Origin: Butyricicoccus pullicaecorum
Lineage (GTDB): Bacteria > Bacillota > Clostridia > Oscillospirales > Butyricicoccaceae
NCBI GenBank assembly: GCA_018366035.1
Contig: JAGZIW010000006.1
Location: 126,847-190,846 of the forward strand
Length of the DNA: 64,000 bases
Direction of reading: 5' to 3'
Every line of letters begins with the position of its first letter. The first letter of the stretch is position 1. The notes under the pieces were generated by a model. The model saw only the letters and a program-made list of their open reading frames with translations. It did no database searches and was not told the origin of the DNA. The position numbers and the translations under genes were made by a program. This document shows positions 4,333 through 27,966 of the stretch, piece after piece.

Positions 4333-4487
4333 ACTTTAGCACCTATCCTGTCTCAGACCAAAGATCTTTTCAGTGTTTTTATGTCTGTTGTGTTTCAGTC
4401 CAACAAAAGCGAAACGTCTCTCATGATGAAAAGCAAGGGACACGCTCCTTGTTGGTTCAAAGTAATGATTTATTTAGTGGATAGGAT

Positions 4488-4754: not shown

Positions 4755-4758
4755 TGTA

Positions 4759-5925: not shown

Positions 5926-5926
5926 A

Positions 5927-10556: not shown

Positions 10557-11900
10557 TCAAAGCGCCAGCATGACAGAGGAGTGAAACACATGCAGGTCGT
10601 GAGTGAACTCCACCCCTCCATCGTATTTGTCTGCAATCGCCTCGATATTACGCAGCCCCAAACCGCTGTGATTAGGTTTGCTGGAAATATATCGGCCACC
10701 AACTTTTTTTGTTTCCTCGTGAAAGCCATTGTCCACAGTAATTGCCAGCATTTGCCCGTAACAGAGCATGTGAAACTGTATGAATCGCTCGTCCGGCTCT
10801 CCGCGGCTGGCAGCGTAGATGGCGTTTTCCAGCAGATTGCCGAGGATCACAGAAAGGTCGATATCCGAAATGGAAAGCGTATCAGGAATCTGGATACGGG
10901 CGTCAAAGCGAATATCCTCTTGTATGGCGATAGTCTGATAGTATCCAACGACCATGTTGACTATGGGGTTGTGGCAGAGCTCGATTAACTCATCTTGCTG
11001 AACAGCACACAGATACTGTTCCAAATATTCGCTTGCTTCCTGTACTTGGCCACGCTGCAAGAAGCCTTGCAGCGTAATAATATGATGCCGCATATCGTGA
11101 CGCAGCCGGCGGCTGTTCTCGATGTTGGTACAAATGTGATGATACTGTTCCTTTTGAATGGAAAGCAGGTGGCGGGTCTGACTTGTATCGTGCTGAGAGC
11201 GCAGCTTTTCATAGGAGAGATATATCATTTTGAAGAAGATGAGATAAATCGTCAGAACCAGCGCAAACAGGGCAAAATACAGGAACAGAGACATTGGATT
11301 ATAGAGGTATTCATAGTCGATGAAAGACAGCCCCACGGTCAGCAGCAGAAAGAGAAACAAGGGAAGTCCCGATAGATAGGTACATTCCTTGGCTGTCAGC
11401 TCAGCTTCCATCGGGCAGTAGTACCGAATCAGAATCAATAGGAACAAGGGCAGAATCAGTGCGGTGCTCAAAGCCAGACTGATAATTGTCCAGCTGCGGT
11501 AGGGAAGCCCGTCATAACCAGTGGAGGGGAGCAGGCGGGTACAGATGACATTGTTGATAGAAGTGATTACCAGTCCGCAGGTAAGGACAAAGGAAAAAAT
11601 AAATAGTTTTTTCTGCCAGATTTCTCTGACCAAATACAGATACCAGATCAGGCAGGGAAACAGACACAGGATAAAGGCCACGTTGACTGCTTGAAACAGG
11701 GTGTGGTCAGGAGGAAACAGCTGCTGTAAAGTACAGCCACCGATTGCAAAAAGTATAGCAAGTGTCAGGATCAGCCAAAGAGTCAAGACTACAGAGCGCT
11801 TTGTGGACAAGCGAAGATGTTTGCGGTAGGGATAAAACGCAAGGACAGCAAAGGGAATAATTTGCAGCAAAAAGCCGGTAAACAGTCGGAGAAAGGTCAT
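10557..11900 (-). CDS. Membrane sensor histidine kinase of the AgrC/ComD/BlpH-like (HPK10, GHKL HATPase_c_5) type.
   Basis: The 447-aa protein has about 8-10 TM helices. It has the H-box RHDMRHHIITLQG and a C-terminal GHKL ATPase region (N-box LLENAIYA, G-box GLGLRNIEAIADKYDGG). Its cognate LytTR regulator lies immediately upstream. Confidence 0.8.
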   Translation of the reverse strand: MTFLRLFTGFLLQIIPFAVLAFYPYRKHLRLSTKRSVVLTLWLILTLAILFAIGGCTLQQLFPPDHTLFQAVNVAFILCLFPCLIWYLYLVREIWQKKLFIFSFVLTCGLVITSINNVICTRLLPSTGYDGLPYRSWTIISLALSTALILPLFLLILIRYYCPMEAELTAKECTYLSGLPLFLFLLLTVGLSFIDYEYLYNPMSLFLYFALFALVLTIYLIFFKMIYLSYEKLRSQHDTSQTRHLLSIQKEQYHHICTNIENSRRLRHDMRHHIITLQGFLQRGQVQEASEYLEQYLCAVQQDELIELCHNPIVNMVVGYYQTIAIQEDIRFDARIQIPDTLSISDIDLSVILGNLLENAIYAASRGEPDERFIQFHMLCYGQMLAITVDNGFHEETKKVGGRYISSKPNHSGLGLRNIEAIADKYDGGVEFTHDLHVFHSSVMLAL

Positions 11901-11905
11901 GGCAT

Positions 11906-12616
11906 TTACCTCCGTGTCAGGTCGAATAGGAATCGTTGGTACTGTGCTTTGAGTTCGGCACGATTGTTTCTGGAAAGAGAAATTTCGGTTCCATCTTTCA
12001 GAATCAGCTTGCTGGAGAGAAAGGAACGAATAAATTCCATATTCACCACAAAGCTGCGCTGAGGTCGCAGAAAACGGCAGCTGTCCAATTGTTCAAAGAG
12101 CGTATTTAGAGAAGTGTAGGTCTGAAACTGCTGTGTATTTGTATGAACGATACACAGCTTATTAAACACCTCGATATAGGTGATTCGTTTGGCTGGAATA
12201 GAAATGCTGCCTTGACTGCTATGAATGTGCAAAACAGGGTTGGCACTCTCTCCCAAACGGGTAAGACAGCGATCCATTGCTTCCCACACGGCGGACTGCT
12301 CTAAGGGTTTGAGCAGATAGTGCACTGCGCCCAGACCAAAGGCTTCAATGGCGTGCTCTCGACTAGTGGTGATGAATACGACCTGTGGATCTCCGCCCAG
12401 ATGCCGAATGACTTCTGTGCCCAGAAGCCCGTCTAGATAAATATCCATGAAGATGATTTGAAAGCTCTGTGACATATCTAAAAGCGCTTCTCCTCTGAAA
12501 AAGCGTGTAATGGCAAATTCCAGACCGTGTGTGGATTGGTATGCCCGAAGAAAGGCTTCCAGAATATCGAGTTGCTGCGGTTCATCATCGCACAGCGCGA
12601 TCTGCAAGAGGAACAC
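11906..12616 (-). CDS. LytTR-family response regulator (ComE/AgrA-like).
   Basis: The receiver domain has an acidic N-terminus (LCDDEP) and the phospho-acceptor in IIFMDIYLDG. The C-terminal LytTR domain reads …YIEVFNKLCIVHTNTQQF…FLRPQRSFVVNMEFI. Confidence 0.85.
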   Translation of the reverse strand: MFLLQIALCDDEPQQLDILEAFLRAYQSTHGLEFAITRFFRGEALLDMSQSFQIIFMDIYLDGLLGTEVIRHLGGDPQVVFITTSREHAIEAFGLGAVHYLLKPLEQSAVWEAMDRCLTRLGESANPVLHIHSSQGSISIPAKRITYIEVFNKLCIVHTNTQQFQTYTSLNTLFEQLDSCRFLRPQRSFVVNMEFIRSFLSSKLILKDGTEISLSRNNRAELKAQYQRFLFDLTRR

Positions 12617-12969
12617 TTCCTTTCCTTATGATTTAGTTTATCATAACAACAAATCTGTTTCAGCACAACAAGTTATTTCGTAAAAAGCAGATTTTTGGCG
12701 TGAACTGCACATCTATGATTGGGGCGAGTCATATATAATAAAGATAAACCAAAAAGGTGAATCAAATTTTAATTAAGAAAGAGGCAGATGTTCTCTGTAG
12801 GAAAGGAGAGCACCTGTATTAGAAATTGATTCCACAATAGAAAGTTCCTATATAGATTAAGGTGTGCAATCTATTGCAGGGGCGCAGCAGACCCGTAATT
12901 GCAATAATTCATATGAGTTTAAGCCATTTTTTGATGACAAACAAGGGGAAGTGAAGAGGGGAAAAGGTC

Positions 12970-14133
12970 ATGAGAGTGTTGCAAAAGATAGGTATATTAT
13001 GTCTGACAATGTTTATAATGGCGGTGCTGACTGCTTGTGAAGCAGGGAAGGATCCTCAAAAAACTGTCGAAAAAACGACTGTACGTATAGCAGTAATGGG
13101 AAATCCTGAAAATTTTTACGCTTCTTATATGGACGGTATAGAAGCAGCTGTTTCTGATGTCCAAAAGGAGTATGCAGATACCGAATATCTCTTTGATGTT
13201 GAGTTTTTCAACGATGAATCAAATTATGAAAAAGGCATGAAAATTGTTGACCAATTGATACACAATGATGATTTTATCGGTGTAATCGGTTCGAGAAATA
13301 TGGAAATTAGCAGTGGAACCGCACATATTTTCGATGAGTACGGAAAGGTTTTCGTTGCACCATATTATATGTATGACAGTGTGTGTGCGGATAACTATTA
13401 TGATTATGTTTTTTCCATGTGCAGTTCTGCTAAAAATACAGGAATCCTTTTAAGAAAAGCAGCAGAGCAGAGCAATGCTGAAAAATGGGCAGCATGCTTC
13501 ACTTCCCGTGAATTTGAGAGAGACGAACTGATTGGTTTTGTAAATTATCAAGGTTACAAAACCGAAGTCGTAGACTGCATATCCATAGAGGAATTGAGTA
13601 AGGATTTCGATGCAGTGTATGATAAATGGGAGCTGTTAGGGGTGGAAGGTGTTGCTTTCTTTGTAAAAGAATTGGAAGGACATAACATCTTGAAGAAGCT
13701 GAAAGCGAAAAATCCGAATCTGGTTTGCGCAGGCGATATCTTATTTGATGACAGCTTGATGATGGAGGAAGATGCAGCATTTGAAGCCGGAATGAAAGAC
13801 TTCATCATAGCAGACGCTTTCTATTTAGATGAGAATGACGAAAGTGAAAACCAGAAGGTTGATCAGATTGCACAAAGCTATCTTCGTGAAAAGGGTATTC
13901 AGATAGATTATTGGTATTTGCAGGGCTATAATGCAGTGCGTATGCTTTGCGATACTGTTGTAAAAAATAAAACGACAGATCCAAAGGTGATAGCTGAGGC
14001 TTTGCACGTTGATGGATATGACGGGCTTATGCAGATATTCCAGTTTGATATGCGCGGTGTTCAGACCAAGGTTCCTGATTATTATCAAATCTATACATCA
14101 GAGGGCACTTGGAAGAAATATATTGCACATTAG
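12970..14133 (+). CDS. Lipoprotein with a type-I periplasmic-binding-protein (Leu/Ile/Val- or amide-receptor-like) fold.
   Basis: Lipobox LTAC after the signal peptide. The two-lobed PBP-like sequence (IAVMGNPEN…IGVIGSRNM…) is present. It is the first gene of the exporter operon and no permease or ATPase partner is adjacent. Confidence 0.65.
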   Translation: MRVLQKIGILCLTMFIMAVLTACEAGKDPQKTVEKTTVRIAVMGNPENFYASYMDGIEAAVSDVQKEYADTEYLFDVEFFNDESNYEKGMKIVDQLIHNDDFIGVIGSRNMEISSGTAHIFDEYGKVFVAPYYMYDSVCADNYYDYVFSMCSSAKNTGILLRKAAEQSNAEKWAACFTSREFERDELIGFVNYQGYKTEVVDCISIEELSKDFDAVYDKWELLGVEGVAFFVKELEGHNILKKLKAKNPNLVCAGDILFDDSLMMEEDAAFEAGMKDFIIADAFYLDENDESENQKVDQIAQSYLREKGIQIDYWYLQGYNAVRMLCDTVVKNKTTDPKVIAEALHVDGYDGLMQIFQFDMRGVQTKVPDYYQIYTSEGTWKKYIAH

Positions 14134-14144
14134 GGGGATCGTTA

Positions 14145-15019
14145 TGGGATTGTTCAGAGAAAAAGCCATGCAAAGCAGCAGTACATTATCTGATGTCGGA
14201 AGGGGAATTGCAGGTATTCGTATTTCTGTATGGCTTTCGGTCATGGGTCTTGGAATTTGTGCTGCCGTTTTTATGATATGGCTGTTTTTCGGCACGATAT
14301 ATGAGACTGTTTCCGTTACTGGACTTGTATGGCCTTTGGAATCTGGAGGAACAGTATATGCGGAAACAACAGGTATTGTAACAGGACAAGTGATATATTC
14401 TGGTGCAGAGGTGAAAGCTGGAGATATTTTGGCGATTTTATACGATGATGAAGCACTCATGCAGCTCGATCTTGCCAAAACAGAAAATTCTTCTGCCTTT
14501 GCAGAATTACAAAAAAAGTACATTAGAAAAACGGTTGTTCGTTCTCATGTTGACGGTATCGTATCGCACATTGTAGATAAGGATACTCGTGTTGCCGAAG
14601 GTGAAGTAGTAGCAGAGGTCATTCCCTTTGATAAAGACGGAAATAATAAAAGAATTACCACATTTATTCCGGCTGATCGGTTAGATCAAATCGAAAATAA
14701 TATGGAGGTTCAGATTGTCCCCGAATTTGCGTCACGGGATAGGGACGGATATGTCTATGGTTATATATCGAGTGTTGGAAAATATCCAATAACCGGAGAA
14801 TATGTCAAGCAGTATTATGATTCTATATTTTCTTTGGGTATCGATATGCAGGAAAAGTATATCTGTGTGGAAATCACAATGGTTTCCGACGCAAACGCAA
14901 AAAGTGGATTAAAATGGTCCAATACAAAAAGTGAGGAAATTGATATAGGTCTGGGAACGCTCTGCCATTGCGATGTTGTCACCAATAAGCTGCAGCCATA
15001 CCAGTATTTGGTCAGGTAG
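14145..15019 (+). CDS. HlyD-family membrane-fusion/adaptor protein (bacteriocin-secretion accessory type).
   Basis: The RBS GGGGGA precedes ATG(MGLFRE). There is one N-terminal TM helix and a biotin-lipoyl-like hairpin (VIYSGAEVKAGDILAILYD). It is shorter than LcnD/ComB (291 aa). Confidence 0.7.
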
Positions 15020-15027
15020 GTGACAGT

Positions 15028-17166
15028 ATGAAAAAAGTGAAAAAGGTAAAACCAGTATTACAGATGGAGGTTACGGAATGTGGTGCAGCTTCACTTTGTA
15101 TGATACTGGATTATTATGGAAAATCAGTTGCGATGGAGCAGCTGCGTCTTGAGTGCGGGGTTTCCAGAAATGGCGTCAATGCAAAAAATATAGCAAGAGC
15201 CTCTATGCTGCATGGGCTCAAGCCACGCGCCTTAAAGGTGGGCGTACATGCAGCAAAGGAATTGAAATTTCCTGCCATCATTCACTGGAATATGGATCAC
15301 TTTGTGGTGCTTTGCGGATTCACAAAAAAAGGTGCTGTGATTGCAGATCCAGCGTCAGGGCTAAGATATGTACTGGAAGAAGAATTTTCCAAAAACTTTA
15401 CTGGGATTGCGCTGGAATTTACACCGAATGAAAGCTTTGAAAAAAATAGAACGCTGAAAAAGGATTATATCAAATCCTGTCTAAAATCGTTCGCACTCGT
15501 TCTGATTATATTTGTGGTTTGTGAGTTTTGCATGCTCATATCTGGCGGTGTTCTTCCTTTTCTAAACTCAGTATACATTAATAAAGTGCTTTTAGATGGT
15601 AAAATGCAGCAGCTTTCCTTTGCAACTGCGGTATTACTTATTTGTTTGTTGATTGCTTTTTTTGGTGGTGTGATAAGGGCATATACCATAAACAAAATTG
15701 TAAAACAGTTGAATGCGAAATTGAATTTTGGATTTTTTGAGCATATATTAAAATTTCCCATAGAATTTTTCTTGCAGAGAAATTCCGGAGAGCTGGCTAT
15801 GAGGCAGGGGGAAGTGATGAATACGGGAAGATGGATTGTGATGATGCTGCCGTTTATCTTCACATCAATGCTTCAGATTTTCATATATCTGACACTTTTG
15901 ATTTTTATGAATCTAAAAATTGCAATCATTGGTGCTGTTATGGTCGTAGTGAATGCAATAGCCGTGGTAATCGCTTCCAAGCGGTATCGGGAAAAGGTTA
16001 TGAGATCTGATCGGGAACGCGCCACGCTGCAAGGGCTTATTTCGCAAACTATAGACGCTGTGGAAACGATAAAATCCTGTGGCTGTGAAGATGCTGTTTT
16101 TGAAAGGCTGATTTCTGCCGGCAGTATCGCAATCAATGCAAGAACAGAGATCGAAAAGACCACAGTTCTCACCAATACAGTATTTACATTTTTGAACGCT
16201 TTTTCCTCAGCTTTGGTGATTGTGGCAGGTGTATGGGAAATCTTATTCAGTTCTTTGACGACAGGCTCCCTGATTGCGCTTCAGGGGGTTATGGCGGCAA
16301 TGCTGGCACCAATTGGAAACGCGATGAATATGGGATTTCAGATGCAGCAGCTCTCTGGTATGACACACAGAACAAATGATGTCATGCGCTATATGACAGA
16401 TACAAAGTTTGCCGAAGCTGAGCAGAAAGAGTTAACAGAGCTGGACAGTGACATAACATTTGAAAACATCACGTTCGGATATAGCCCTTTGGATACGCCA
16501 ATTTTAAAGGATTTTCATTTCCATATAAAAAAAGGAGGCAGTCTAGCCATAGTAGGCGGCAGTGGCAGTGGAAAATCTACTGTTGCAAAGCTGATTGCAG
16601 GATTGTTTTGTGAACAAAACGGTAAGATATTTTTTGGCAGCAGCGAAAGAAAGGAAATCGGACGAGATGACTTCTATTCGGAGGTTGCAGTCGTAACACA
16701 AAGTATCAGGCTTTTTGAGGGAACTGTGCTGGATAATATCACCATGTTTGACAATACCATTCCGTATGATGATGTTGTCGCTGCGGCAAAAATCGCTTGT
16801 ATTCATGAGGGGATTATTGCAAGACCTTCAGGTTATCGTGAGTGGGTGTCAGAAAATGGAAGAAATTTTTCAGGTGGGCAAAGACAGAGAATTGAAATTG
16901 CAAGAGCAATTGTGAAAAAGCCAAAACTGCTGATTATGGACGAGGCAACAAGCGCCTTAGATGCGGACACGGAAATGGATATTATGCAGGCAGTGTCTGA
17001 CATGGGAATCACAACGATTGTAGTAGCACACAGGCTTTCTGCAATAAGATATTGCGATAGTATCATTGTTATGAGAAATGGAGAGATTGCAGAACGTGGT
17101 ACGCACCATGAGCTTATGGCAATGGACGGAGAATATGCTGCGCTTCAGAGAGAAGGTGATATCTAG
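15028..17166 (+). CDS. Peptidase-C39 domain ABC transporter (bacteriocin/peptide-pheromone exporter, ComA/LagD-like).
   Basis: The N-terminal C39 domain has catalytic Cys18 (VTECGAASLCMILDYYG) and His (HFVVL). It also has a 6-TM permease domain and an NBD with Walker A GGSGSGKST, signature SGGQRQRIEIARA and Walker B LLIMDEAT. Confidence 0.9.
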   Translation: MKKVKKVKPVLQMEVTECGAASLCMILDYYGKSVAMEQLRLECGVSRNGVNAKNIARASMLHGLKPRALKVGVHAAKELKFPAIIHWNMDHFVVLCGFTKKGAVIADPASGLRYVLEEEFSKNFTGIALEFTPNESFEKNRTLKKDYIKSCLKSFALVLIIFVVCEFCMLISGGVLPFLNSVYINKVLLDGKMQQLSFATAVLLICLLIAFFGGVIRAYTINKIVKQLNAKLNFGFFEHILKFPIEFFLQRNSGELAMRQGEVMNTGRWIVMMLPFIFTSMLQIFIYLTLLIFMNLKIAIIGAVMVVVNAIAVVIASKRYREKVMRSDRERATLQGLISQTIDAVETIKSCGCEDAVFERLISAGSIAINARTEIEKTTVLTNTVFTFLNAFSSALVIVAGVWEILFSSLTTGSLIALQGVMAAMLAPIGNAMNMGFQMQQLSGMTHRTNDVMRYMTDTKFAEAEQKELTELDSDITFENITFGYSPLDTPILKDFHFHIKKGGSLAIVGGSGSGKSTVAKLIAGLFCEQNGKIFFGSSERKEIGRDDFYSEVAVVTQSIRLFEGTVLDNITMFDNTIPYDDVVAAAKIACIHEGIIARPSGYREWVSENGRNFSGGQRQRIEIARAIVKKPKLLIMDEATSALDADTEMDIMQAVSDMGITTIVVAHRLSAIRYCDSIIVMRNGEIAERGTHHELMAMDGEYAALQREGDI

Positions 17167-19280
17167 TGAAGGAACTTGAAAGAATAAGAGAAAAAAAGCG
17201 TGAAGATATTCGGCTTGCCCATGAGAATATGGAGAAAGCGCTCAAGGGAAATGGTGGTTTACAGGGCGTGAATGCAGTGCTGAAATTTTTAAATGTCAAT
17301 GGGAGTGTTGACGACAGTTTGCCAATTCGTGTACAGCTTGAAAGGCTTACGGAGCGCTATAATATCAATATTCGCTATGGAAAGCTTGAAACAGATTTTT
17401 ATATGAAAGCGATACTGCCCATGCTTGTAAAGACAAAGGAGGATACGTATCTTGCGGTGATACCAAGACAGAACGGCTCCTGCTACTATATAAAGGGCAA
17501 TCAAAAGATAAATTTATCCGAAGAAAAACGTACATTGTTTACAGATGAGGCACTGTACTTTTATAAGAATTTGGGAAATGATAGGGTTACCTTAAAAAGC
17601 CTTGTGCAGTTCATGTTCGATTGTGTATCGACAAGAGATAAGTTGACAGTAATATTGCTTTCCGTAACAGCGTCGGTAAGCGGGCTGCTTCTGCCATGGG
17701 CAAATAACTATATTTTTTCTAAGATTATTCCGACAGGGGATTCGTCGGGCGTTTTAGCTACTGCGGCACTGATGCTGTCTGCAATCCTGACTGCGACGAT
17801 TGTAAAGCTGATTCAATCCTTTGTAATGACCAATTCGATGGCGAGGGTGAGTGCGTATGTCCAAAATAGTGTTATTCATCGATTGCTAAGAGTACAGTCT
17901 GGATTTTTTAAATCTGAGAAGTCAGGAGCTGTTTCGGATTTGATCATGCGGTTTTCTGATATCTTGCAGATTATATCAGCAAATAGTATTACTGCTTTTA
18001 TATCAGCAGCTTTATCTGTGGTATATCTCTATCAAATTTATCATTATGCACCTTCTCTTTTGGGTGTAACGTTTTTGATAACGGCTATACTTTTAATTGT
18101 TATTATAAGAGAAGGTGTATCTAGTATTCAATACAAAAAAACATACGCAAAAGCGCTGTCCGATATGTCTGGCTTTGTTTATGAAATGTTTTCGGGTATG
18201 GAACAGGTAAAGTTAAACGGAGCGGAGGCAAAAATGCTGCATCGGTGGAGTCAACGATATGTCACATGTGCCAATGCGGAGACACCGCCGTTTGTTATAA
18301 GGTATTCCGAAGTGCTTTATAAGCTGATTACGACCCTTGCGATGCTTTTTATATTTTGGGGTGCTGCAGATGTCCCTGCATCGAGTTACATTGCGTTTGC
18401 AACTTCGTATGGTTCGTATATTGGAGCACTGATGAGTCTCGCGGGCGTAATTGCAACAATTGGTGAGTTTCAGGCAGCCTACGAAATGGTGCGTCCGCTC
18501 TTTGATGCAGGGCTTGAGGAGACAGAGACGAACAAGCAAAGACCAGCAGAGATAAATGGTGAGATCACGGTTTCAGATTTGTCGTTTCGATATCATGATA
18601 CAATGCCTTATATCATAAAGGACATGTCTTTTCGTGTGAAAAAGGGCGAGAGTATTGGAATTGTGGGAGCCTCAGGCTGTGGGAAATCCACACTGATCCG
18701 GCTGCTTTTGGGATTTGAAACGCCTGAGGACGGCAGTATTTATATTGACGGATTTGATTTGAGAGAGCTGGATTTGAAATATTATCGGCAAAATATTGGT
18801 ACCGTGATGCAAAATGCAAAGCTGATATCAGGAGATATTTATTCTAATATAGTATTGACAAAGCCAAATGCACACATTGACGAGGTGTGGGAAGCGGTTT
18901 CTCTGGCGGGCCTGTACGATGATATTACAGCACTTCCTATGGGACTGCATACGCCTGTTAGTGAGGATAACTGTACGCTTTCCGGAGGTCAACGGCAGAG
19001 AATATTGATAGCGAGAGTCATGATTGCAAAGCCATCTATACTGATCTTTGATGAAGCGACATCTGCACTGGATAATATTACACAGGCTAAGATTACAGAA
19101 GGTATCAATCGGCTTGACTGCACGAAACTGATAGTGGCGCACCGATATACAACAATTAGGGCTTGTGATAGGATTTTTGTGATGGATCGAGGTAGGATTG
19201 CAGAATGTGGTACTTATCATGAGTTGATTGCTAAAAAGGGCATATTTTTTGGACTGATGTCAGGACAAAAGTTGCAATAA
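17166..19280 (+). CDS. Second ABC transporter permease/ATPase with an N-terminal non-catalytic (C39-like?) extension.
   Basis: GTG start overlaps the upstream stop. The first 150 aa or so lack the Cys/His protease motifs. Then come a 6-TM domain and an NBD (GASGCGKST, LSGGQRQRILIARV, ILIFDEATSALD). Tandem pairing with a C39-ABC resembles the TIGR03796/TIGR03797 'NHLM' exporter pair. Confidence 0.85.
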   Translation: MKELERIREKKREDIRLAHENMEKALKGNGGLQGVNAVLKFLNVNGSVDDSLPIRVQLERLTERYNINIRYGKLETDFYMKAILPMLVKTKEDTYLAVIPRQNGSCYYIKGNQKINLSEEKRTLFTDEALYFYKNLGNDRVTLKSLVQFMFDCVSTRDKLTVILLSVTASVSGLLLPWANNYIFSKIIPTGDSSGVLATAALMLSAILTATIVKLIQSFVMTNSMARVSAYVQNSVIHRLLRVQSGFFKSEKSGAVSDLIMRFSDILQIISANSITAFISAALSVVYLYQIYHYAPSLLGVTFLITAILLIVIIREGVSSIQYKKTYAKALSDMSGFVYEMFSGMEQVKLNGAEAKMLHRWSQRYVTCANAETPPFVIRYSEVLYKLITTLAMLFIFWGAADVPASSYIAFATSYGSYIGALMSLAGVIATIGEFQAAYEMVRPLFDAGLEETETNKQRPAEINGEITVSDLSFRYHDTMPYIIKDMSFRVKKGESIGIVGASGCGKSTLIRLLLGFETPEDGSIYIDGFDLRELDLKYYRQNIGTVMQNAKLISGDIYSNIVLTKPNAHIDEVWEAVSLAGLYDDITALPMGLHTPVSEDNCTLSGGQRQRILIARVMIAKPSILIFDEATSALDNITQAKITEGINRLDCTKLIVAHRYTTIRACDRIFVMDRGRIAECGTYHELIAKKGIFFGLMSGQKLQ

Positions 19281-19388
19281 CAAAAATGAGAAAGAGGTGA
19301 AAAGATAACAAGGAAAGAACTCATATATTTGCGTGAAAAATCACGCAGCAGGTTGTTCAATGCAAAATGAATTAAGGAGGGGAAAAAC

Positions 19389-22300
19389 TTGAATAAAATT
19401 CAACAGAGGGCAGTAAGTGGTATTTTGTCATTTTCAATGATTGTATCAGCAATGCCCAGCGCATTTGCGCGAAATGAATCAATTAGTGGGACAGCCGAAA
19501 TTTCTTTTGCGGCGTCAAAGTATGTCGTCTCAGAAAATGAAAAAAAGCTGAAAGTGAAAATCGTACGCTCAGGCGGTAACGAGAGTAAGATTGATGTAGC
19601 ATTTAAGACAGCTGATTTTACTGCTGAATATGGCGCTGACTATGTTGTACTTGACGAAAACGGTGATGAATTGCCTGTTGTTGACGGAATTGCTCCAGAT
19701 GAATCTATGTTTGAGGAGGTATCGGACAATGCAATCATTACAGAGGTTGATGAGGATACTACTGTAACAGACGATCAAACCACTGAAAAATTAGAGGAAT
19801 CAGAGCAAAATACTGAAGATAACAATACAACAGATGAAATCATAAACGATGAGGGAGAGGTCGAAGAGCTTTCGACTGTAATTGAAAATGTTTCTGATGC
19901 GGAAATTCAGGAGGAGACCGCTGATGCAGAGAAGCCGGAGGAGTCTCTTGAAAAATCAGAGTCTGAGAATAGCAATCCTGTAACAGGTGAACAGACAGAT
20001 GAAAAATCTGAACAGCCCGGTGAAGATGTTGGAGATGATACCACGGGAGACGAAGGCGGTGAGGATACCGATACTGAGACTCAGGAGCCGACAGAAAATG
20101 TTCCAGATACAGAAAAGCAGGACGAGGTATCTGATACTGCGGAAGATGAGCCAACTTTGGATAGTCAAGGCACAGCAAGGACCTCCACCGGTTCTGCTCT
20201 GCTTGATGCACAGGCACAGTATTTACAATTGCCTGACGAAGATGGAGAGACTGCGGAAGCAGTAGAAAACATTCTTACAGAGACAAACAACTATTTTCAA
20301 GGTGCGCGTGGTGCAGTGGGTGTTGTGACCTTTCAGGAGGGACAAACCCAAAAGGAAATCACAATAAAGATTCTTGATAATGATCGCGCTCATGCAGATA
20401 AGATTATCATGCTGTCGCTTATGGGAATAAACGGCGATGAGAAAACTTCACTTGCAGCAAATCCTACGGCGTATGTTAATATTATGGACGATGAGGCATA
20501 TGAAAAGCCTGTTATTACTCCAGCGATCAATGAAATTACGCTGACAGAGCAGGAGCCGACCTATGAACTTACGCTCACAAGAAACGAGGGCGTTGAATAC
20601 TACACTTCTGTTCTTGTTTCGACAGTTAAGGGCACAGCACAAGAGGGCTACCATTATGAAAAAATCGAAAATGCAAGCCTTGCGTTTGTGCCCGGAGAAA
20701 CAGAAAAGAAAGTGAAGATTTCAGCGGAACACTTCGACAAAGAAATGACGTTTGGAATTCGCTTGGAAAGTGATGGCACCTGTGAGATAACAGATGAATA
20801 CATTGATGTAACCATGGCGGCAAAGTCTGCGCAAGCTGCTGTAATAAATAGCGAAGCCGCTGTGCTAACGTCTGTGGATAATAACATTGCGCAGGCAGCA
20901 TCAAATGTACTCGGAGCCCCATCTACACTAGTTGTACTGGATATGGAGAAGGGGCCTAGCATGGGCAGTCAGGATGGTTGGCATAGAAGGGGAGAAAGGG
21001 ATTATGGTCTTTATGAAACCTATAAGAATAGTGGCAGGACATGGGTTGCGAAGAATGCAACCAATCTTTCTGGCGTAGACAAAATTTCGTTTTCTCATCA
21101 GAACAAGGGACATTATGTCGGAAAACGTGGGGCATACCATATCTTTATTGAACTCCTTCGTGGAAAGGACAGAGATGATTACGGAGCATCTGGTGACAAA
21201 AATCTCAGAAAAGATGGAAATCATGGATGGACAGACAGTAGGCTAGATGTTTCGGAGTTGAACGGTGATTATTTTATCCGTTTTGGTATCAGAAATGATG
21301 GCTGGCCCGCTGATAATGCGGAAAGCTGGTTTGGAGATCGTGTGCATTTAGAGTGGAAAAGGTATAACTTTGACATTCATAACAAACAGGTATTTAACCG
21401 CCTTGCATATGATTACGCAGATAAAACTGGTGAAGCTTTAAAAATCGCATATACAGATGGTCAAGATGATTATGATTATATTCCTTCTGTGAAGCTGGTG
21501 GATAACGCAGGCAATGAGGTAAGTGGTTTTTATGCGAATGCAAATCAAACAATAAAGCCGGTATCGACAAATCCGCAGCTTGATGCAAAGTATGGCGTAG
21601 AGCTTGAGGGCGTATATCTTTATACAAAAGACAACGACAGTCTTTATAGGAAAGAGACCAGATACCCATATAAGGATCATTGGTATACAGACAAGACGTT
21701 GTGGATACCTTCGAGCGGCATAAGCGCAGACCAGAGTTTGGCAGAACGCATTGACAAAACATTTGGACGCAATGTAACAGTAGTCAAAGTGATGCCGAAG
21801 TTTAAGCAAAAAACAATCACGTTAAATGTTCATAATATAGATGATGAAAATACGTATATTGCTAATATGAACAGCAAGCAGGCGGAAAGCTATCGTGATT
21901 GGGGGGCGAGGGGATATTATAATCAATATACCTTCCCAATGAATTCCAAGATTAAGGTTCGTGCGGTTGGTGCTTCAAATAAAACGATTACAGGATTCAA
22001 AGTAGATCTGTGGTCAAAGTCGGATAAGGACGATCCGATCTATTCTGATAGTAATGCACCAGAAAGAATGACGTATGTTCTTTCTGAAAATATGAGTTTT
22101 TATCCGAGAACCGAGAATGACGGAATGAATGTTGCGTATATGCCGAATGTGGATAAGGTGGTAGATGATCTGACAGGGCGCGCATTTCTCCAGCCGTCAA
22201 CCGCACAGGAGGCAGAAGAGCTGCTCGCTTCCAATAAAAACGGTGATATCCATATCAAAACAGTTTATCCGGGCATGCTCTGGACACTGCGCGCAACAGC

Positions 22301-25300
22301 ACCAGAAGGATATTATGTCAAGTGGACAAATGGAACCGGAGATATTAAAAATATCAACGGAATGATAGATGCAAGCTCCGATCCAAATGTCAACGAGCAA
22401 ACAGAAAGTACGAAAAAGTTCAAGGACTTGTATAATCCGATTTTCGGTGATATATTGTCTCGCGATATCGTACAGAACAACACAAAATATTATTATGAGT
22501 TTGTAAAGAATAACAATACATCAACGGTAGTCAAAGGCAGAGTAGAACGGGAAAATGGAAGTTTTTACGATGTGGTACACAATAGGCGGCTCGATGTAAC
22601 ACCAGTTAACGCGACACAGGTAAGTATTGCGGGAACTGCTGGATTTACAGATGGGACGGGTCACTTTGCCATAGAGGTTAAAAATGTTCCACGTTCAGGA
22701 ATGATTAGTATTCTGGTAGATGACAATGGAACTACGTATCCCGCTACAGCGTTGATAAATAATCTATATCTGACACTTCCGGCGTACGAGTGTTTCAAGC
22801 CAAAGGCATTGAATATAAGATATGAAGATGATGTAACCAATAAAATAAACGGTACAGCTGTCAATGTCAAAGATGATACACTGCATATAACCGCAGAGGT
22901 CGAAAGCAATGGTACCATTGAGCCTGTGGACGCAAAATTCTCTATCCATAAGGTGAATGGTTCGGTGATTGATTGTTCAACAGACAGCAGATTTACCAAC
23001 GGGTTTGCAAACAGAACAGCAACACTCAGCTTTAATCCGAAATCTGTATTGGATTCGGGTGACAGAATATACGTTTCTTTCACAGACCAGAATGGTAAGT
23101 CTTATAAATCAATGGATTTGGGGTATGACTTTGTTACGCCGCTTAATCTCGGAACCTTTTTGTTCCCGCTGATTGGCAGTGAGCTGCTCGAAGACACATA
23201 CAGCAGTGCGGTAGAGCTGATAGGTGACCCACTTGGCAACGTATCGTTAGGTAAGATTGGCTTTGATGAACCTGTAACGGAAGATGTTACTCCGCCGGGA
23301 ATGGACTCCAATGAGTATAAGTATCAAATGACAACTTATCAATTTGGTGACTATAAGAGTGCGGTAAAGACCTTCGGTGCGGAGAGTGAGGAGGAGCCTG
23401 ACCAGAGCAAGAGTGAAGAGACAAAGAAAAAGGCGAAAAAGGCATTGGACAAGAACGGTCAAAAACCTGATGGAGGAGGATATAAAACGGCAAAATCCTT
23501 CTCATGGGAGCTTTCCCCTAAAATGGTATTTGCCATGCAGCTAACAAGCCGAAATGTAGATGGTGAATACAAATACTTCTTTGAAGAACTGGATTTCATT
23601 GTAGGGCTTGACTTTGATGTGGACGGAAAAATAACGATCACTTTGCCCATTGGAATGAACGTCATTATCACGGCTGGACTGAATGGAAATATTACTGGCA
23701 TATTCCAACTCAAAACCGATTACACAGGAGATTCGACATGGAACACCAATAAGGTCGAGTACAGTCCGGAGACATTCGGATTATTCGAAGAAATAGAGCA
23801 TGTCAACAGAAAGGCATATCTGATGCTCGATCCGAATATTTCGCTTGGACTTGGCGTAGAGATTGCAATTATTGAATTGGGTGGACATGCGAACTTCAAC
23901 TTTGATATGGATTTTGAATTTGGACTGAATGCAGGTTCGTTAGGACACCGCATGTACGGTGATATGACATATAACTTTGATTATTATATCAAGGTGCTGT
24001 CATTTGAGGTTTACTCTAATGCAACAAAGGAACAGACTGTCAAGCTATTTTCGGAGAATGCCGATGGACATATCGAACCCGACCTCATTCCGGATCTTTT
24101 GAGTGCGGAAGATGATAGAATACAATCCATACAGTCAACAAGAGATTATCTTGACAATGAATCGGGGTGGAACAGCAGCAATTATGCAATATCACCTTTT
24201 GATATCGATGCAGGCAATACAGAGGAAATGACTTTGCAAAGCGGAATATATCCCAGCGCAAAGACAACGCTTACACCAATTGGTGGCGGTAAGATGTTTA
24301 TGACATTCATCGGTGATGTGCCGTCAAGAGGTGATGTGGATCGAACTGGTCTGTTTTACTCCATATATGATGGCACAACATGGTCACAGCCAAAGCTGGT
24401 AGACGATGATGGAACGCTAGATGATTACCCGAATGTATTTGATTTGGGAGATAAGCTGTTGATTTCATGGTCCTCGGCAGACAAAAAGTTTGGGAACAAT
24501 GCAACAACGCAGCAGGCTTTGTCCGCGCTGGATATCAAGACGGTGTTCTTTGAAAAAAAGAGTGAACGTTTTGAACAGGTGACACAGCTGACACATAAAA
24601 CAGAGCAGGACTATGCTGCGGATGTGAATCCGAAGGCTGCATATGACAGTACAAGCGACAGACTGATACTCTACTATACCAAAACTGAGTATGAAGATGC
24701 CAAAACATTGACAGATCTTACTACTGCTGCATCGGTTATCGCATACCGTTTCTATGAAAATGGGAAGTGGAATGATGCATCAAGCTATACAGATAAAGAG
24801 CTTGCAGGTGTTACAGACAAGGAGGCGTATAAACGAAATTGGTACGGTCAGAGATTCCTTGATACGAGACTTGACAAAATGAGCCAAGAAATGCTCCGAA
24901 TCGTTGATTCCGATGCAATTTCTTACAACGGGCTGGCGCTCTATGCATGGACGGTTGACTATGATAAGGATTTGAATACCGTAGAGGACCGCGATGTATT
25001 CATGCAGATTTATAACTTTAAGCAAAATGATTTTACCCATATCGTAAAAATGACGCCAGAAGCAGGTGCGTATCAAGCACCACAATTTGGCCGATATAAA
25101 GATGAAACATTCCTGTTCTATTCTTCTATTGGGAAATTGGGAGAAGGTGAGAATCAAGAACAAAGCGGTATTGCTTATTTGGAGGTAAGCGATATTATCT
25201 CAAACGATAAGTACACAAAGGTCAATATAGGTTCCTCTGAGTACTATAAGCTGGAATACGAAACAATGTCTGGGGAAACAACTTCCAGCGATGGAACAAT

Positions 25301-27431
25301 CATTCCCGAAGAAAAGCAAACTGTAAAGATTATGCCGTCATATGCTGTGAAATTAGATGGATATGTAAACAATTACAGTGTTGACGTCGATCAGAACGAA
25401 AGCATGTATTTGACATGGACAAATTCTGATGAAAATGGTTCCAGACAGGTATATACATCTATTTTTGACTGTGACCCGTCTGTGGGTACGAAAGCTGCAG
25501 CAGCTGATGAGGCTTCGCGGAACTCAGACTGGAGTGAAGCGTTTAAGCTGACAAATGCAGAAGATGTATCGTACAGAAATGCTGATGCAGCTGTTATGGA
25601 CGGAAAGCTTTATATTGTATCATCAAAGACTCCTTATATTACAGATGGTGACAGCAAGAAGCTTGATGATAACAATACAAGCCTTGTCATGCTGACACAT
25701 ATACCATATGCAAGGGCTGTAACAGTCGATGAAAATGCGCTGACAGTAAATACAGAATATGTGTATCCGAATACAGGATTCGTTCTAACTTCAACAGTAA
25801 AGAATGAGGGTACTAAATTTATTGACAAACCAGTTACCTTTAGATTCACAATGGTATCTAATGGTGTGGTGACAGAGTTTGGAACACAGACCGTAGAAGG
25901 TGTCTGGGGTGCCGGAAAGATGTTGCAGGCATCTGTCAATGTTCCTGCAATTTCTGAGATTCGTGATGATCTTACTTTCTGTGCAGATATTACCGTAGAA
26001 GGCGGAACACCAATTCGACAGGAGATGCGTATTATAAAGGAGCATAATCTGGTTTCTGATGGAGATGCCTCTCTCGTAGAGAATACGGACGGGCATAGTC
26101 TGTATATCCCGCTGAAAAACAAGGGAAATGTCACGTCCCCAGAGGTTACGGTAAGTCTATATACCGCGAAGGGAGATACTGTAGATAAGCTGATAGACGC
26201 ATATACTGTCAATACCATTGCCGAAAATACATCAATAACGATGGAGGAGACGGTTCAAATTCCTGACAGTGCCTTTGTGATTGATGAAAATGACGGTGCA
26301 GCAGATATTATTGCAGTGGTACAGGCTGGCGGCGAGGACGTGATTACACTCAAAGCGACTGCACACAAAAATTTCGATGCACAGGCAATCGAAACGATGC
26401 GTAAGGTGACTGGTGTGTCCATCGAGGGCAATGACAGAATTTATGCAAAGCGCCTTGAGGATATTGAAATTGCAACGGAAGTTGGAGGTACAGCAGGCGA
26501 TGAAGTTATGGTTCTCTGGAAAAGCGACAATGCAGATGTTGTATATGTCAGAGAAGACAACACTTTGTTTGCAGCCGGAAACGGTACGGCTCGTCTGACA
26601 GGTTATGTTATCCCGTCTGCACAAAATATCGTATTCCAATACGACGGAACATCAGAGAAGGAAGATGTGCTGAAGAATATACCTTCGACACTGCATCACA
26701 CAGTAGTTGCAGATGTAATCGTAAACGAAACTGGCACAGATTCTGGTGGTGGTTCTTCCGGAGGCAGTTCCGACGATGATGATGATTTTGATAAAGAGGA
26801 ACCCAAAAAGGAAGAAGAATTGAATGAGCCAACTACACCGTCAACCGGAACTTGGACAAATCCATTCCGTGATGTTTCTAGCGATGATTGGTTCTTTGAC
26901 AGCGTTCAATATGTTTGTGAGAACAACATCTTCAAGGGCATGACGGATACAAGCTTTGAACCACACGCCAAATTGACAAGAGCAATGCTGGTAACAGTGC
27001 TCTATCGTTTGGAGGGAGATTTAGATATGAATGGAATTTCAGGAAGTTCGTTTACAGATGTGGCAGCAGAAAGCTGGTATGGAGATGCTGTATATTGGGC
27101 AAGCCAGAACGGGATTGTAAAGGGGTATGCAGAAGGAACTTTTGCGCCAAATGATCAAATTACCCGTGAACAGTTTGCGGCCATTATGGAGCGTTATGCT
27201 ACCTATGAGGGAAATAGAGTATCAAATTCTGTCGATATGTCGCAATTTACGGACAAAGAAGAAATTTCAGATTGGGCAGTCACAAGTCTTTCTTGGGCGG
27301 TTGGCTCCGGTTTGATTTCTGGTAAGGGCAATGGTATCCTAGATCCAAAGGGCAGCGCAACACGTGCTGAGGCTGCTGCAATTCTCCAGAGATATATAGA
27401 AAATATATCGAAAAACAGTATGGTACAATAA
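19389..27431 (+). CDS. Giant (2680 aa) secreted multidomain S-layer-homology surface protein.
   Basis: TTG start after RBS AAGGAGGGG, then a Sec signal peptide (…SAMPSAFA|RNES). Two Calx-beta-like domains are present, the first split by a D/E/T-rich insert of about 200 aa. A BNR Asp-box (SIYDGTTW) and CARDB-like segments (VKNEGT.., LKNKGNV..) follow. A Big_2-like domain, a GS/D-rich linker and three C-terminal SLH repeats (WFFDSVQYV…, WYGDAVYWA…, DWAVTSLSWA…) complete the protein. Confidence 0.85.
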   Translation: MNKIQQRAVSGILSFSMIVSAMPSAFARNESISGTAEISFAASKYVVSENEKKLKVKIVRSGGNESKIDVAFKTADFTAEYGADYVVLDENGDELPVVDGIAPDESMFEEVSDNAIITEVDEDTTVTDDQTTEKLEESEQNTEDNNTTDEIINDEGEVEELSTVIENVSDAEIQEETADAEKPEESLEKSESENSNPVTGEQTDEKSEQPGEDVGDDTTGDEGGEDTDTETQEPTENVPDTEKQDEVSDTAEDEPTLDSQGTARTSTGSALLDAQAQYLQLPDEDGETAEAVENILTETNNYFQGARGAVGVVTFQEGQTQKEITIKILDNDRAHADKIIMLSLMGINGDEKTSLAANPTAYVNIMDDEAYEKPVITPAINEITLTEQEPTYELTLTRNEGVEYYTSVLVSTVKGTAQEGYHYEKIENASLAFVPGETEKKVKISAEHFDKEMTFGIRLESDGTCEITDEYIDVTMAAKSAQAAVINSEAAVLTSVDNNIAQAASNVLGAPSTLVVLDMEKGPSMGSQDGWHRRGERDYGLYETYKNSGRTWVAKNATNLSGVDKISFSHQNKGHYVGKRGAYHIFIELLRGKDRDDYGASGDKNLRKDGNHGWTDSRLDVSELNGDYFIRFGIRNDGWPADNAESWFGDRVHLEWKRYNFDIHNKQVFNRLAYDYADKTGEALKIAYTDGQDDYDYIPSVKLVDNAGNEVSGFYANANQTIKPVSTNPQLDAKYGVELEGVYLYTKDNDSLYRKETRYPYKDHWYTDKTLWIPSSGISADQSLAERIDKTFGRNVTVVKVMPKFKQKTITLNVHNIDDENTYIANMNSKQAESYRDWGARGYYNQYTFPMNSKIKVRAVGASNKTITGFKVDLWSKSDKDDPIYSDSNAPERMTYVLSENMSFYPRTENDGMNVAYMPNVDKVVDDLTGRAFLQPSTAQEAEELLASNKNGDIHIKTVYPGMLWTLRATAPEGYYVKWTNGTGDIKNINGMIDASSDPNVNEQTESTKKFKDLYNPIFGDILSRDIVQNNTKYYYEFVKNNNTSTVVKGRVERENGSFYDVVHNRRLDVTPVNATQVSIAGTAGFTDGTGHFAIEVKNVPRSGMISILVDDNGTTYPATALINNLYLTLPAYECFKPKALNIRYEDDVTNKINGTAVNVKDDTLHITAEVESNGTIEPVDAKFSIHKVNGSVIDCSTDSRFTNGFANRTATLSFNPKSVLDSGDRIYVSFTDQNGKSYKSMDLGYDFVTPLNLGTFLFPLIGSELLEDTYSSAVELIGDPLGNVSLGKIGFDEPVTEDVTPPGMDSNEYKYQMTTYQFGDYKSAVKTFGAESEEEPDQSKSEETKKKAKKALDKNGQKPDGGGYKTAKSFSWELSPKMVFAMQLTSRNVDGEYKYFFEELDFIVGLDFDVDGKITITLPIGMNVIITAGLNGNITGIFQLKTDYTGDSTWNTNKVEYSPETFGLFEEIEHVNRKAYLMLDPNISLGLGVEIAIIELGGHANFNFDMDFEFGLNAGSLGHRMYGDMTYNFDYYIKVLSFEVYSNATKEQTVKLFSENADGHIEPDLIPDLLSAEDDRIQSIQSTRDYLDNESGWNSSNYAISPFDIDAGNTEEMTLQSGIYPSAKTTLTPIGGGKMFMTFIGDVPSRGDVDRTGLFYSIYDGTTWSQPKLVDDDGTLDDYPNVFDLGDKLLISWSSADKKFGNNATTQQALSALDIKTVFFEKKSERFEQVTQLTHKTEQDYAADVNPKAAYDSTSDRLILYYTKTEYEDAKTLTDLTTAASVIAYRFYENGKWNDASSYTDKELAGVTDKEAYKRNWYGQRFLDTRLDKMSQEMLRIVDSDAISYNGLALYAWTVDYDKDLNTVEDRDVFMQIYNFKQNDFTHIVKMTPEAGAYQAPQFGRYKDETFLFYSSIGKLGEGENQEQSGIAYLEVSDIISNDKYTKVNIGSSEYYKLEYETMSGETTSSDGTIIPEEKQTVKIMPSYAVKLDGYVNNYSVDVDQNESMYLTWTNSDENGSRQVYTSIFDCDPSVGTKAAAADEASRNSDWSEAFKLTNAEDVSYRNADAAVMDGKLYIVSSKTPYITDGDSKKLDDNNTSLVMLTHIPYARAVTVDENALTVNTEYVYPNTGFVLTSTVKNEGTKFIDKPVTFRFTMVSNGVVTEFGTQTVEGVWGAGKMLQASVNVPAISEIRDDLTFCADITVEGGTPIRQEMRIIKEHNLVSDGDASLVENTDGHSLYIPLKNKGNVTSPEVTVSLYTAKGDTVDKLIDAYTVNTIAENTSITMEETVQIPDSAFVIDENDGAADIIAVVQAGGEDVITLKATAHKNFDAQAIETMRKVTGVSIEGNDRIYAKRLEDIEIATEVGGTAGDEVMVLWKSDNADVVYVREDNTLFAAGNGTARLTGYVIPSAQNIVFQYDGTSEKEDVLKNIPSTLHHTVVADVIVNETGTDSGGGSSGGSSDDDDDFDKEEPKKEEELNEPTTPSTGTWTNPFRDVSSDDWFFDSVQYVCENNIFKGMTDTSFEPHAKLTRAMLVTVLYRLEGDLDMNGISGSSFTDVAAESWYGDAVYWASQNGIVKGYAEGTFAPNDQITREQFAAIMERYATYEGNRVSNSVDMSQFTDKEEISDWAVTSLSWAVGSGLISGKGNGILDPKGSATRAEAAAILQRYIENISKNSMVQ

Positions 27432-27454
27432 TTTTTAGAAAGGTTGATAAAATT

Positions 27455-27613
27455 ATGGCAAAGGAAATGAAGAATCTAAACAAAGAGGCAGAGGAGCAGG
27501 ACGTTCAGGAGCTTGACTTTGACGAATTGGAAGAGGTTACAGGAGGATCTATAAAAGATGTCGTTTATACCCCGACGGTAGATATCAGTCAGGACACGAA
27601 GTTAAAAATCTGA
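27455..27613 (+). CDS. Double-glycine-leader precursor peptide, 52 aa. It is absent from the ORF track because it is under 60 aa.
   Basis: ATG lies 24 nt after the giant-protein stop, with RBS GAAAGG upstream. Translation is MAKEMKNLNKEAEEQDVQELDFDELEEVTGG|SIKDVVYTPTVDISQDTKLKI. The leader fits the GG consensus (L-12, E-8, L-7, V-4, GG). An intrinsic terminator follows directly. Confidence 0.7.
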   Translation: MAKEMKNLNKEAEEQDVQELDFDELEEVTGGSIKDVVYTPTVDISQDTKLKI

Positions 27614-27630
27614 GTTCTGTGAAGTGAAAT

Positions 27631-27668
27631 GTGGAGAGCTGTTTTATAACAGCTCTCCACATTTTTAT
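27631..27668 (+). terminator. Intrinsic terminator ending the exporter/giant-protein/peptide operon.
   Basis: GTGGAGAGCTGTT-ttat-AACAGCTCTCCAC followed by ATTTTTAT. Confidence 0.8.

Positions 27669-27890: not shown

Positions 27891-27966
<76 letters not shown>

Follow-up and report, generated by a model that had tools for sequence, protein, structure and literature searches.

A double-glycine leader peptide of Butyricicoccus pullicaecorum, its clostridial family and the giant Calx-beta surface protein encoded beside it

Introduction

Peptides with double-glycine (GG) leaders that are exported by C39-peptidase ATP-binding cassette (ABC) transporters are usually taken to be bacteriocins or pheromones. 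What, then, would such a peptide do when its family fits neither template well? The question is raised by a 52-aa open reading frame (ORF) at 27455..27613 of a 64,000-nucleotide stretch of Butyricicoccus pullicaecorum contig JAGZIW010000006.1 (GenBank assembly GCA_018366035.1, positions 126,847 to 190,846 of the forward strand), the whole of which is referred to here as the window. The ORF follows a gene for a giant surface protein, and an original prediction, made from the letters of the window, had proposed that it encodes a GG-leader peptide, more likely a secreted signal or a new unmodified peptide class than a classic bacteriocin. The family turns out to be common in human-gut Clostridia, and its predicted product in the window is an unmodified, synthesisable 21-mer. 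If the role of the peptide were worked out, a giant surface protein that is widespread among butyrate producers would gain a function, and a mode of cooperation between small exported peptides and proteins of the cell surface that is so far unfamiliar could come to light.

The precursor gene

On comparative sequence evidence, 27455..27613 is a functional, conserved gene for a 52-aa precursor. Its parts and signals are as follows.

27455..27613 (+): precursor peptide gene, 52 aa, translated as MAKEMKNLNKEAEEQDVQELDFDELEEVTGGSIKDVVYTPTVDISQDTKLKI; purifying selection and family profile
27455-27547 (+): leader, codons 1-31, with the Gly-Gly end at 27542-27547; from the translation
27548-27610 (+): predicted mature 21-aa peptide SIKDVVYTPTVDISQDTKLKI, followed by the stop codon at 27611-27613
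27437..27443 (+): Shine-Dalgarno site AGAAAGG, 11 nt upstream of the ATG; site and spacing identical in the diverged relatives L013 and L007
27630..27668 (+): intrinsic terminator with a perfect 14-bp stem, a TTAT loop and a T5 tail, from folding; conserved in L013

Relatives of the ORF were taken from other assemblies and share 75-79% identity (L001-L006, L013 and L030/31) or 69% identity (L007-L012) with it. Frameshifts or stops in relatives, which the original prediction had named as grounds for giving it up, were absent from the gene copies compared. The ORF is intact in five copies at four loci (one each in the window, L013 and L007, and a tandem pair in L030), a 9-nt deletion in the L007 leader is in frame in the DNA alignment, and pN/pS (the proportion of non-synonymous over that of synonymous differences) is 0.11-0.31 across all pairs by Nei-Gojobori counts. 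The aligned relatives also have an invariant Shine-Dalgarno site and spacing, and numerous third-position changes. In some comparisons the core is more tightly constrained than the leader: L013 and the first L030 copy (L030a) differ in the core at 10 synonymous and 0 non-synonymous sites, and the tandem L030 paralogues at 11 and 0, respectively. That the two L030 cores are identical in protein despite 11 synonymous differences indicates strong selection on the core.

In principle, the ORF could have arisen by chance within the giant gene's 3′ untranslated region, or the stretch could be an RNA element that codes for no protein. Small ORFs are plentiful, with 155 of at least 40 aa in 20 kb, so 52 codons alone are not beyond chance. 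However, the chance-ORF reading is rejected because of the selection on the sequence, the in-frame indel, the invariant Shine-Dalgarno site and the family matches, which comprise 72 cluster representatives at E<=1e-3 among 1.84 billion proteins. A non-coding RNA is opposed by the Rfam search, in which only the neighbouring tRNA-Met reached threshold and no other family was found at the locus. Both forms of this explanation are considered extremely improbable.

The ORF starts 24 nt past the last base of the stop codon of the giant gene (27431). The terminator hairpin occupies 27630-27661, begins 16 nt 3′ of the peptide stop codon and is followed by TTTTT; it folds with a dG of -36.5 kcal/mol (z = -6.7), a stability that none of 200 shuffled sequences reached. 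Translation, sequence and folding bear out the position of the ORF, its ribosome-binding site, the 24-nt spacing and the strong terminator as originally described. Two other descriptions have to be revised. The ORF had been called unreported, whereas NCBI already lists the same product, from a metagenome-assembled genome, as 'hypothetical protein Q4A63_02920 [Butyricicoccus pullicaecorum]'; and the core had been called anionic, whereas its 3 Asp and 3 Lys residues give a net charge of 0. The leader is anionic (-8).

Downstream, a tRNA-Met (CAT) gene at 27891-27966 (-) has its own terminator at 27888-27856 (-), which converges on the peptide terminator at a spacing of ~190 nt. Because of this convergence, the peptide gene is taken to be the last of its transcription unit.

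Two variant arrangements were seen among the close relatives. In a related Butyricicoccus sp., two tandem peptide genes follow the giant gene (L030 10001-10159 and 10314-10472; likewise in L031), and their mature cores are the same protein differing at 11 synonymous sites, while their leaders differ. In L007, the segment 9674-10128 (equivalent to window 27123-27588) retains only the last ~310 nt of the giant gene, as a 108-aa SLH ORF, followed by the intact peptide ORF. The sequence upstream of this remnant (L007 1-9445) is a restriction-endonuclease/GmrSD defence island, and the remnant arrangement is found in L007-L012.

The leader and the peptide family

By its defining sequence features, the peptide belongs to the GG-leader substrates of C39 ABC transporters. 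The leader carries G-1, G-2, V-4, L-7, E-8, L-12 and V-15, in agreement with the hydrophobic residues at -12, -7 and -4, the Glu at -8 and the Gly-Gly originally assigned to it, and apart from 27455..27613 no small ORF of the 64-kb window fits the GG-leader pattern. The search against GG-leader models that the original prediction had suggested was run, and it placed the window peptide below the cut-off of every curated model: 14.0 bits against 15.7 for TIGR01847 (bacteriocin_sig), 15 bits against a gathering threshold of 20.4 for PF03047 (ComC), 20 against 21.7 for PF04604 and 17.1 against 21.5 for TIGR03949 (lactobin A/cerein 7B), with no match to PF10439 (Bacteriocin_IIc), TIGR03793 or TIGR03798. 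Weak matches among 66 family members number 24 for PF03047, 17 for TIGR03949, 15 for TIGR01847, seven for TIGR04497 ('ATP-grasp target'), five for VP1 and one for Nif11 (E = 0.066), and a single member, P0063, clears TIGR01847 (16.4). Class IIb, class IIc and CTB bacteriocin models are also matched weakly. Wherever the matched stretch was inspected, the weak family matches are confined to the leader. Since the curated thresholds of the ComC, bacteriocin_sig, class IIb/IIc and NHLP/Nif11 models were failed, the peptide is not to be filed under any of them.

A word-index protein search with the peptide alone found three close relatives, and a genome-collection scan with a three-sequence alignment, for which leader patterns were chosen as query, found one locus only; the wider family emerged only from an exhaustive profile search. 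The profile of three close sequences, searched against 1.84 billion representatives at the cut-off given above, yielded the 72 matches, nearly all of which are ~50 aa long and align end to end. When an alignment of 66 sequences was then used as query, 82 clusters were returned, and ~130 related peptide sequences were obtained from both searches. In metagenomes, a hand-made pattern (T.DIS.DTK.KI-stop) identified five loci; the plasmid collection held no family match. One match of 5,715 aa (P0026) was discarded as a false positive, due to a repeated 'IEDLTGGSMADTF' motif. The taxa named among the matches are Butyricicoccus, Blautia, Lachnospiraceae, Dehalobacterium, Clostridiaceae and Clostridia, and some members are abundant, P0099 occurring on 213 contigs and P0078 on 75. 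None of the family matches has a Pfam domain or NCBIfam coverage, and every copy named in its source is a 'hypothetical protein'.

Among 120 distinct leaders, G-1 and G-2 are present in 100%, V-4 in 96%, L-7 in 95%, L, I or V at -12 in 99% and E-13 in 86%, while the leader N-terminus is variable. The core is 21 aa long in 79 sequences and 22 aa long in 36, and Cys occurs in 0 of 119 cores. Thr10 and Ile13 are each conserved at 97% and Asp12 at 74%, and the C-terminal consensus reads S-L-R-D/N-V-x-x-T-x-T-x-D-I-S-x-D-T-K-x-K-I. Member P0028 (85 aa) is a single ORF with the leader-plus-core unit twice in tandem (…KKVTGG followed by SGTIDNVDYTPTDDIDDETKEKV…), which suggests a gene fusion or a two-product precursor. 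An AlphaFold model of the precursor, built with the family alignment, contained short helices only at a mean predicted local distance difference test (pLDDT) score of 65 and was uninformative. Judging from the profiles and alignments, these peptides are a previously unmodelled family of Clostridia, with a core covered by no existing model. Of the two options offered by the original prediction, the new unmodified peptide class is accordingly the better one, as the class lies outside existing models. In a full-text literature search, which did not cover all journals, neither the peptide family nor its association with a giant Calx-beta protein was found described.

A giant Calx-beta protein gene as constant neighbour

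19389..27431 (+): giant 2680-aa surface protein; Sec-type N-terminus by eye, Calx-beta domains and three C-terminal SLH domains (Pfam)

Genomic context was compared in the 11 independent lineages with enough flanking DNA, the flanks being limited to 10 kb. The lineages are the window with L001/L013/L030; L015/16; L017/18; L019; L020; L021/22; L023/24; L025; L026/L029 with L028; L032; and L033. In 11 of 11, the peptide gene adjoins a gene for a Calx-beta protein of 2,236-3,309 aa on the same strand. The peptide gene is located immediately 3′ of the giant gene in eight lineages, with a gap of 5-85 nt in seven of them and 121 nt in L032, and immediately upstream of it in the remaining three, where the gap is ill-defined (~200 nt in L021). 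The giants are homologous: when the window protein was used at full length as query, up to 1,887 residues aligned at 24-31% identity, and the homology is strongest over window-protein residues ~950-2660. The homologues that were inspected have Sec-type N-termini, while their C-terminal anchors differ (SLH, LRR_5 or Big_2); on the short contig L014, the gene upstream of the peptide gene likewise ends in SLH repeats. The original prediction had suggested a search for the same short ORF downstream of orthologous giant SLH genes, and a family peptide gene adjoins the giant gene in every lineage. The giant gene itself had been treated as incidental rather than as the constant neighbour that it is. 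It appears to be the peptide's real partner.

The N-terminus of the window giant is of the ordinary Sec type, ending in an AFA motif (by eye); therefore, the giant is not itself a substrate of the C39 transporter. For residues ~460-2480, sequence searches of Pfam, NCBIfam and the PDB gave no match, whether the query was a segment or a profile of 11 sequences. The central region of ~1700 aa is uncharacterised, and a single-sequence model of residues 1560-1965 had a pLDDT of 40 and was unusable. The best conserved part, residues ~1500-1965 (window 23889-25283), has beta-hairpin repeats with an Asp-box-like 'YSIYDGTTWSQP' and invariant Trp/Tyr/Asp columns. By eye it looks beta-propeller-like, unconfirmed by model or database match.

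Exporter and regulatory genes

Upstream of the giant gene lie a string of exporter genes and, divergent from it, a pair of regulatory genes.

12970..14133 (+): solute-binding-type lipoprotein, first gene of the string; Peripla_BP_6 2.4e-11, lipobox LTAC by eye
14144..15019 (+): HlyD-like accessory protein of 291 aa, counted from the start codon ATG at 14144; TIGR03794, 111 bits against 156; start and ribosome-binding site read from the sequence
15028..17166 (+): C39-peptidase ABC transporter (peptidase-containing ABC transporter, PCAT), predicted leader protease and exporter; Peptidase_C39 1.9e-34, ABC_membrane, ABC_tran
17166..19280 (+): second ABC permease/ATPase without a peptidase domain; TIGR03797, 561 bits against 709, ABC_membrane, ABC_tran
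10557..11900 (-): histidine kinase, AgrC/ComD-like; GHKL HATPase_c_5 2.4e-15, ~7 hydrophobic N-terminal segments
11906..12616 (-): response regulator with a LytTR DNA-binding domain, divergent; LytTR 5e-18, Response_reg 1.1e-10
12617..12969 (no strand assigned): divergent intergenic control region; weak, from short blocks common to the equivalent L015/L016 region

The best NCBIfam match of 15028..17166 is TIGR03796, at 688 bits against a cut-off of 853. The closest solved relative of its C39 domain is LahT150 (6mpz, 127 bits), with which it shares the motifs 'ECGAASL', containing Cys18, and 'HFVVL', containing His91; these two residues we take to be the catalytic residues of C39 peptidases. 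A predicted cognate C39 ABC transporter with conserved Cys and His is therefore encoded near the peptide gene. Between the second ABC gene and the giant gene is a 108-nt gap (19281-19388) that holds a hairpin (GCGTGA-AAAA-TCACGC) with no T-run, then a strong ribosome-binding site and the TTG start of the giant gene; no terminator was detected in this gap. From the sequence alone, one transcript for the exporter genes, the giant gene and the peptide gene is plausible. Of the original statement that a C39 exporter is encoded in the same operon, the conserved Cys/His pair and the common gene string stand, while the single transcript stays at that plausible level.

The kinase and LytTR regulator at 10557..12616 had been overlooked in the original prediction. 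The ComC, BlpC, PlnA and AgrD peptides are sensed by pairs of this sort, a multi-pass kinase and its LytTR regulator. Such a pair, with a multi-pass HATPase_c_5 kinase, is present at three of the 11 lineages (the window, L015/16 and L018), and the L015 counterparts of kinase and regulator are each 45% identical and in the same divergent position. In the window, the pair lies ~15 kb from the peptide gene with the exporter and giant genes in between, and the adjacency of comD/comE is lacking. The four-gene set of lipoprotein, HlyD-like protein, C39 ABC transporter and second ABC protein recurs in five of the 11 (the window, L015, L019, L029 and L032), with only the start of the cassette visible in L015. 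A binding-protein gene recurs as Peripla_BP_6 in L015, L019 and L032 and as ABC_sub_bind in L026, and L029 has a same-sized ORF at that position. With flanks of 10 kb, exporter or kinase genes that are missing from some loci may lie further off.

In the control region, short blocks are shared across genera between window 12836-12899 and L015 1840-1891, namely GAAA-N-TTCC, GTGCA and GCA[AG][GA]CCCGTAAT; over the control region as a whole, the blocks in common with L015/L016 are GAAA-N-TTCC, GTGCA and CCGTAAT. A 13-mer common to the window and L015 is missing from the near-identical L016. Either a promoter or regulator site or mere coincidence could account for the shared blocks.

Several of the other clusters carry additional genes, for an S8 (mycosin-like) protease, a single-module non-ribosomal peptide synthetase (NRPS; C-A-T-TE), an Lgt paralogue and a 461-479-aa protein of no known kind. 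They occupy the following regions.

L015 10182-18511: added genes
L018 10483-17329: added genes
L020 1-1855 and 10269-11006: added genes
L032 1-1317 and 10449-11888: added genes

An MFS transporter is encoded in L026, L029 and L032. None of these additional genes is in the window, where the ORFs scanned include neither an S8 protease nor an NRPS or Lgt. Proteins of the ATP-grasp, LanB/C/M, YcaO and radical-SAM kinds are likewise missing, both from the ORFs at 7.7-33.6 kb and from the further large ORFs that the scan covered. Elsewhere in the window, a second LytTR-domain regulator at 3607-4332 (-) lies near a BlaR1/M56-type membrane protein at 4759-5955 (-), and this region (3607-5955) appears unrelated to the peptide cluster.

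Proposed role of the peptide and alternatives

The reading put forward here, to which about an even chance is assigned, is that an unmodified 21-mer, SIKDVVYTPTVDISQDTKLKI, is cleaved and exported through the C39 transporter and acts on its own cluster, probably as an autoinducer. The precursor would be made from the 3′-terminal part of the transcript that carries the giant gene, and the helix-prone leader segment (L-12, L-7 and V-4) would dock in the C39 domain of 15028..17166. The leader would then be cut after Gly31 and the linear 21-mer exported by both ABC proteins together with the HlyD-like protein. We infer cleavage and export by analogy with the established transporter biochemistry of LahT, PCAT1 and ComA. 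Gene context suggests that the exported peptide would act outside the cell on the products of its own cluster. Its most likely target would be the AgrC/ComD-like kinase, which would act through the LytTR regulator on the divergent operon, so that production of the exporter, the giant protein and the peptide would be under positive feedback. A further or alternative binding partner would probably be the giant protein, the binding lipoprotein or both. Because the AgrC/ComD-like kinase and LytTR regulator are adjacent to this operon, autoinduction is the single most likely step in the window genome.

Several observations weigh against this reading. The matches of the window peptide to GG-leader models are leader-only and sub-threshold, co-transcription of the gene string is no more than plausible, and no convincing LytTR-type direct repeats (9-10 bp, 19-23-bp spacing) were found in 12617-12969. 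Within the DNA fetched, the kinase and regulator occur in 3/11 lineages and the exporter in 5/11; therefore, signalling through the pair is not a universal role of the family, unless the genes lie elsewhere. The core is conserved across genera at a fixed length of 21-22 aa, whereas ComC, BlpC and AgrD signals diversify into pherotypes. The family is a poor fit to a classical pheromone because of this conserved, fixed-length core, the constant giant gene and the frequent absence of the kinase pair. The pheromone idea of the original prediction is thus strengthened by the adjacent kinase/LytTR pair, but it is weakened by a core conservation that is the reverse of that in ComC/BlpC and by the giant as the constant neighbour.

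This poor fit keeps a rival in play, in which the mature peptide would be no population signal but a dedicated extracellular partner of the giant protein (for example a ligand, cofactor, added strand, or regulator/neutraliser), with the kinase pair, where present, merely regulating the cluster. Adjacency of a homologous giant gene on the same strand is the sole constant feature across the 11 lineages, and the fixed core length, the conservation of Thr10, Ile13 and Asp12 and the stronger constraint on the core in some comparisons are as expected of such a partner; given the Sec-type N-termini seen by eye, peptide and giant would meet outside the cell. However, the centre of the giant is without a recognisable fold or pocket, a gene position at the 3′ end is equally compatible with an autoinduction loop, and in L007-L012 the peptide gene persists beside a mere 108-aa giant remnant. 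A direct interaction of the peptide with the giant, or with the lipoprotein, is a serious rival, to be held tentatively. In its most specific form, peptide and giant would be a conserved two-gene extracellular module in which the exported peptide of 21-22 residues, nearly fixed in sequence, binds the wall-anchored giant and is required for its assembly or activity, a proposal that is likewise somewhat doubtful. If true, it would represent a peptide-assisted giant surface-protein system so far undescribed in Gram-positive bacteria and common in human-gut Blautia, Butyricicoccus and other Clostridia.

Modification of the conserved Thr/Ser/Asp/Lys core by enzymes encoded elsewhere, before or after export, would make the product a ribosomally made peptide that is modified after translation (RiPP). 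Near-invariant positions and a fixed length, both present here, are typical of enzyme-recognised cores, and 7 of 66 members match TIGR04497 weakly; the S8 protease, NRPS and Lgt paralogue in the L015, L018, L020 and L032 clusters also speak for this explanation. Against it, the window has none of these three, nor any ATP-grasp, LanB/C/M, YcaO or radical-SAM gene within ~15 kb of the peptide gene, in line with the original remark that modification enzymes are missing nearby; L019, L021, L023 and L033 are likewise without such enzymes in the vicinity, no core contains Cys, and the TIGR04497 match falls on the leader, not the core, in the one member inspected. A graspetide at the window locus was rejected on account of that leader match and the lack of an ATP-grasp gene, and a RiPP in general is judged unlikely. 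An unmodified class II (IId-like) bacteriocin would account for the GG leader, the dedicated C39 ABC exporter with its accessory protein and the low-scoring hits on the models for class IIb, class IIc and CTB bacteriocins, and a three-component regulatory layout is known for many class II bacteriocins. The core, however, is hydrophilic, carries no net charge and lacks any amphipathic or hydrophobic stretch, no gene for an immunity-type small membrane protein adjoins, the constant neighbour is a giant surface protein, and the model matches that were checked are leader-only and sub-threshold. A bacteriocin role is very unlikely because the core is hydrophilic and neutral and an immunity gene is lacking.

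Comparison with known systems

We rate the novelty of the locus as that of a known export route combined with a new peptide family and an unprecedented constant partner. With the three-component systems by which lactic acid bacteria signal through peptides, namely ComC/competence-stimulating peptide (CSP)-ComAB-ComDE, BlpC-BlpAB-BlpRH and PlnA-PlnBCD, the window has in common a GG-leader precursor, a C39 ABC exporter with an accessory protein and, beside the cluster, a LytTR regulator and a multi-pass kinase of the GHKL (HATPase_c_5) type. Unlike in those systems, the peptide gene lies at the 3′ (in some lineages the 5′) end of a giant gene and not beside the kinase and regulator, and the family core is conserved across genera instead of being hypervariable. 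The window exporter also differs in that its cassette has two ABC proteins and is joined by a binding lipoprotein, and most of the loci fetched lack the kinase pair. With the class II bacteriocins (TIGR01847, PF10439 and TIGR03949), the peptide shares the leader consensus and the export route, but its core is hydrophilic and neutral and it has no immunity gene.

TIGR03794, TIGR03796 and TIGR03797 describe a three-gene export cassette for NHLP/Nif11 peptides (Haft et al., 2010; PMC2887384). The best NCBIfam matches of the window HlyD-like, C39 ABC and second ABC proteins are these three models, although all three proteins fall below the cut-offs (111/156, 688/853 and 561/709, respectively). LahT of Lachnospiraceae (LahT150, PDB 6mpz) offers the closest solved C39 domain and cleaves at Gly-Gly, as is predicted for the window peptide. 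Unlike the NHLP/Nif11 RiPPs, the window peptide has a 31-aa leader without an NHLP or Nif11 domain and a Cys-free core, and its locus has no cyclodehydratase or LanM genes and carries a lipoprotein gene before the cassette.

BriC and VP1 are small GG-leader peptides with C39 ABC export, surface or biofilm effects and poorly defined receptors. The family described here differs from them in having no core similarity, another taxonomic range and, in its own case, a link to a giant-protein gene that is not known for BriC or VP1. Both are orphan pneumococcal GG peptides and are covered by a review (PMC7595303).

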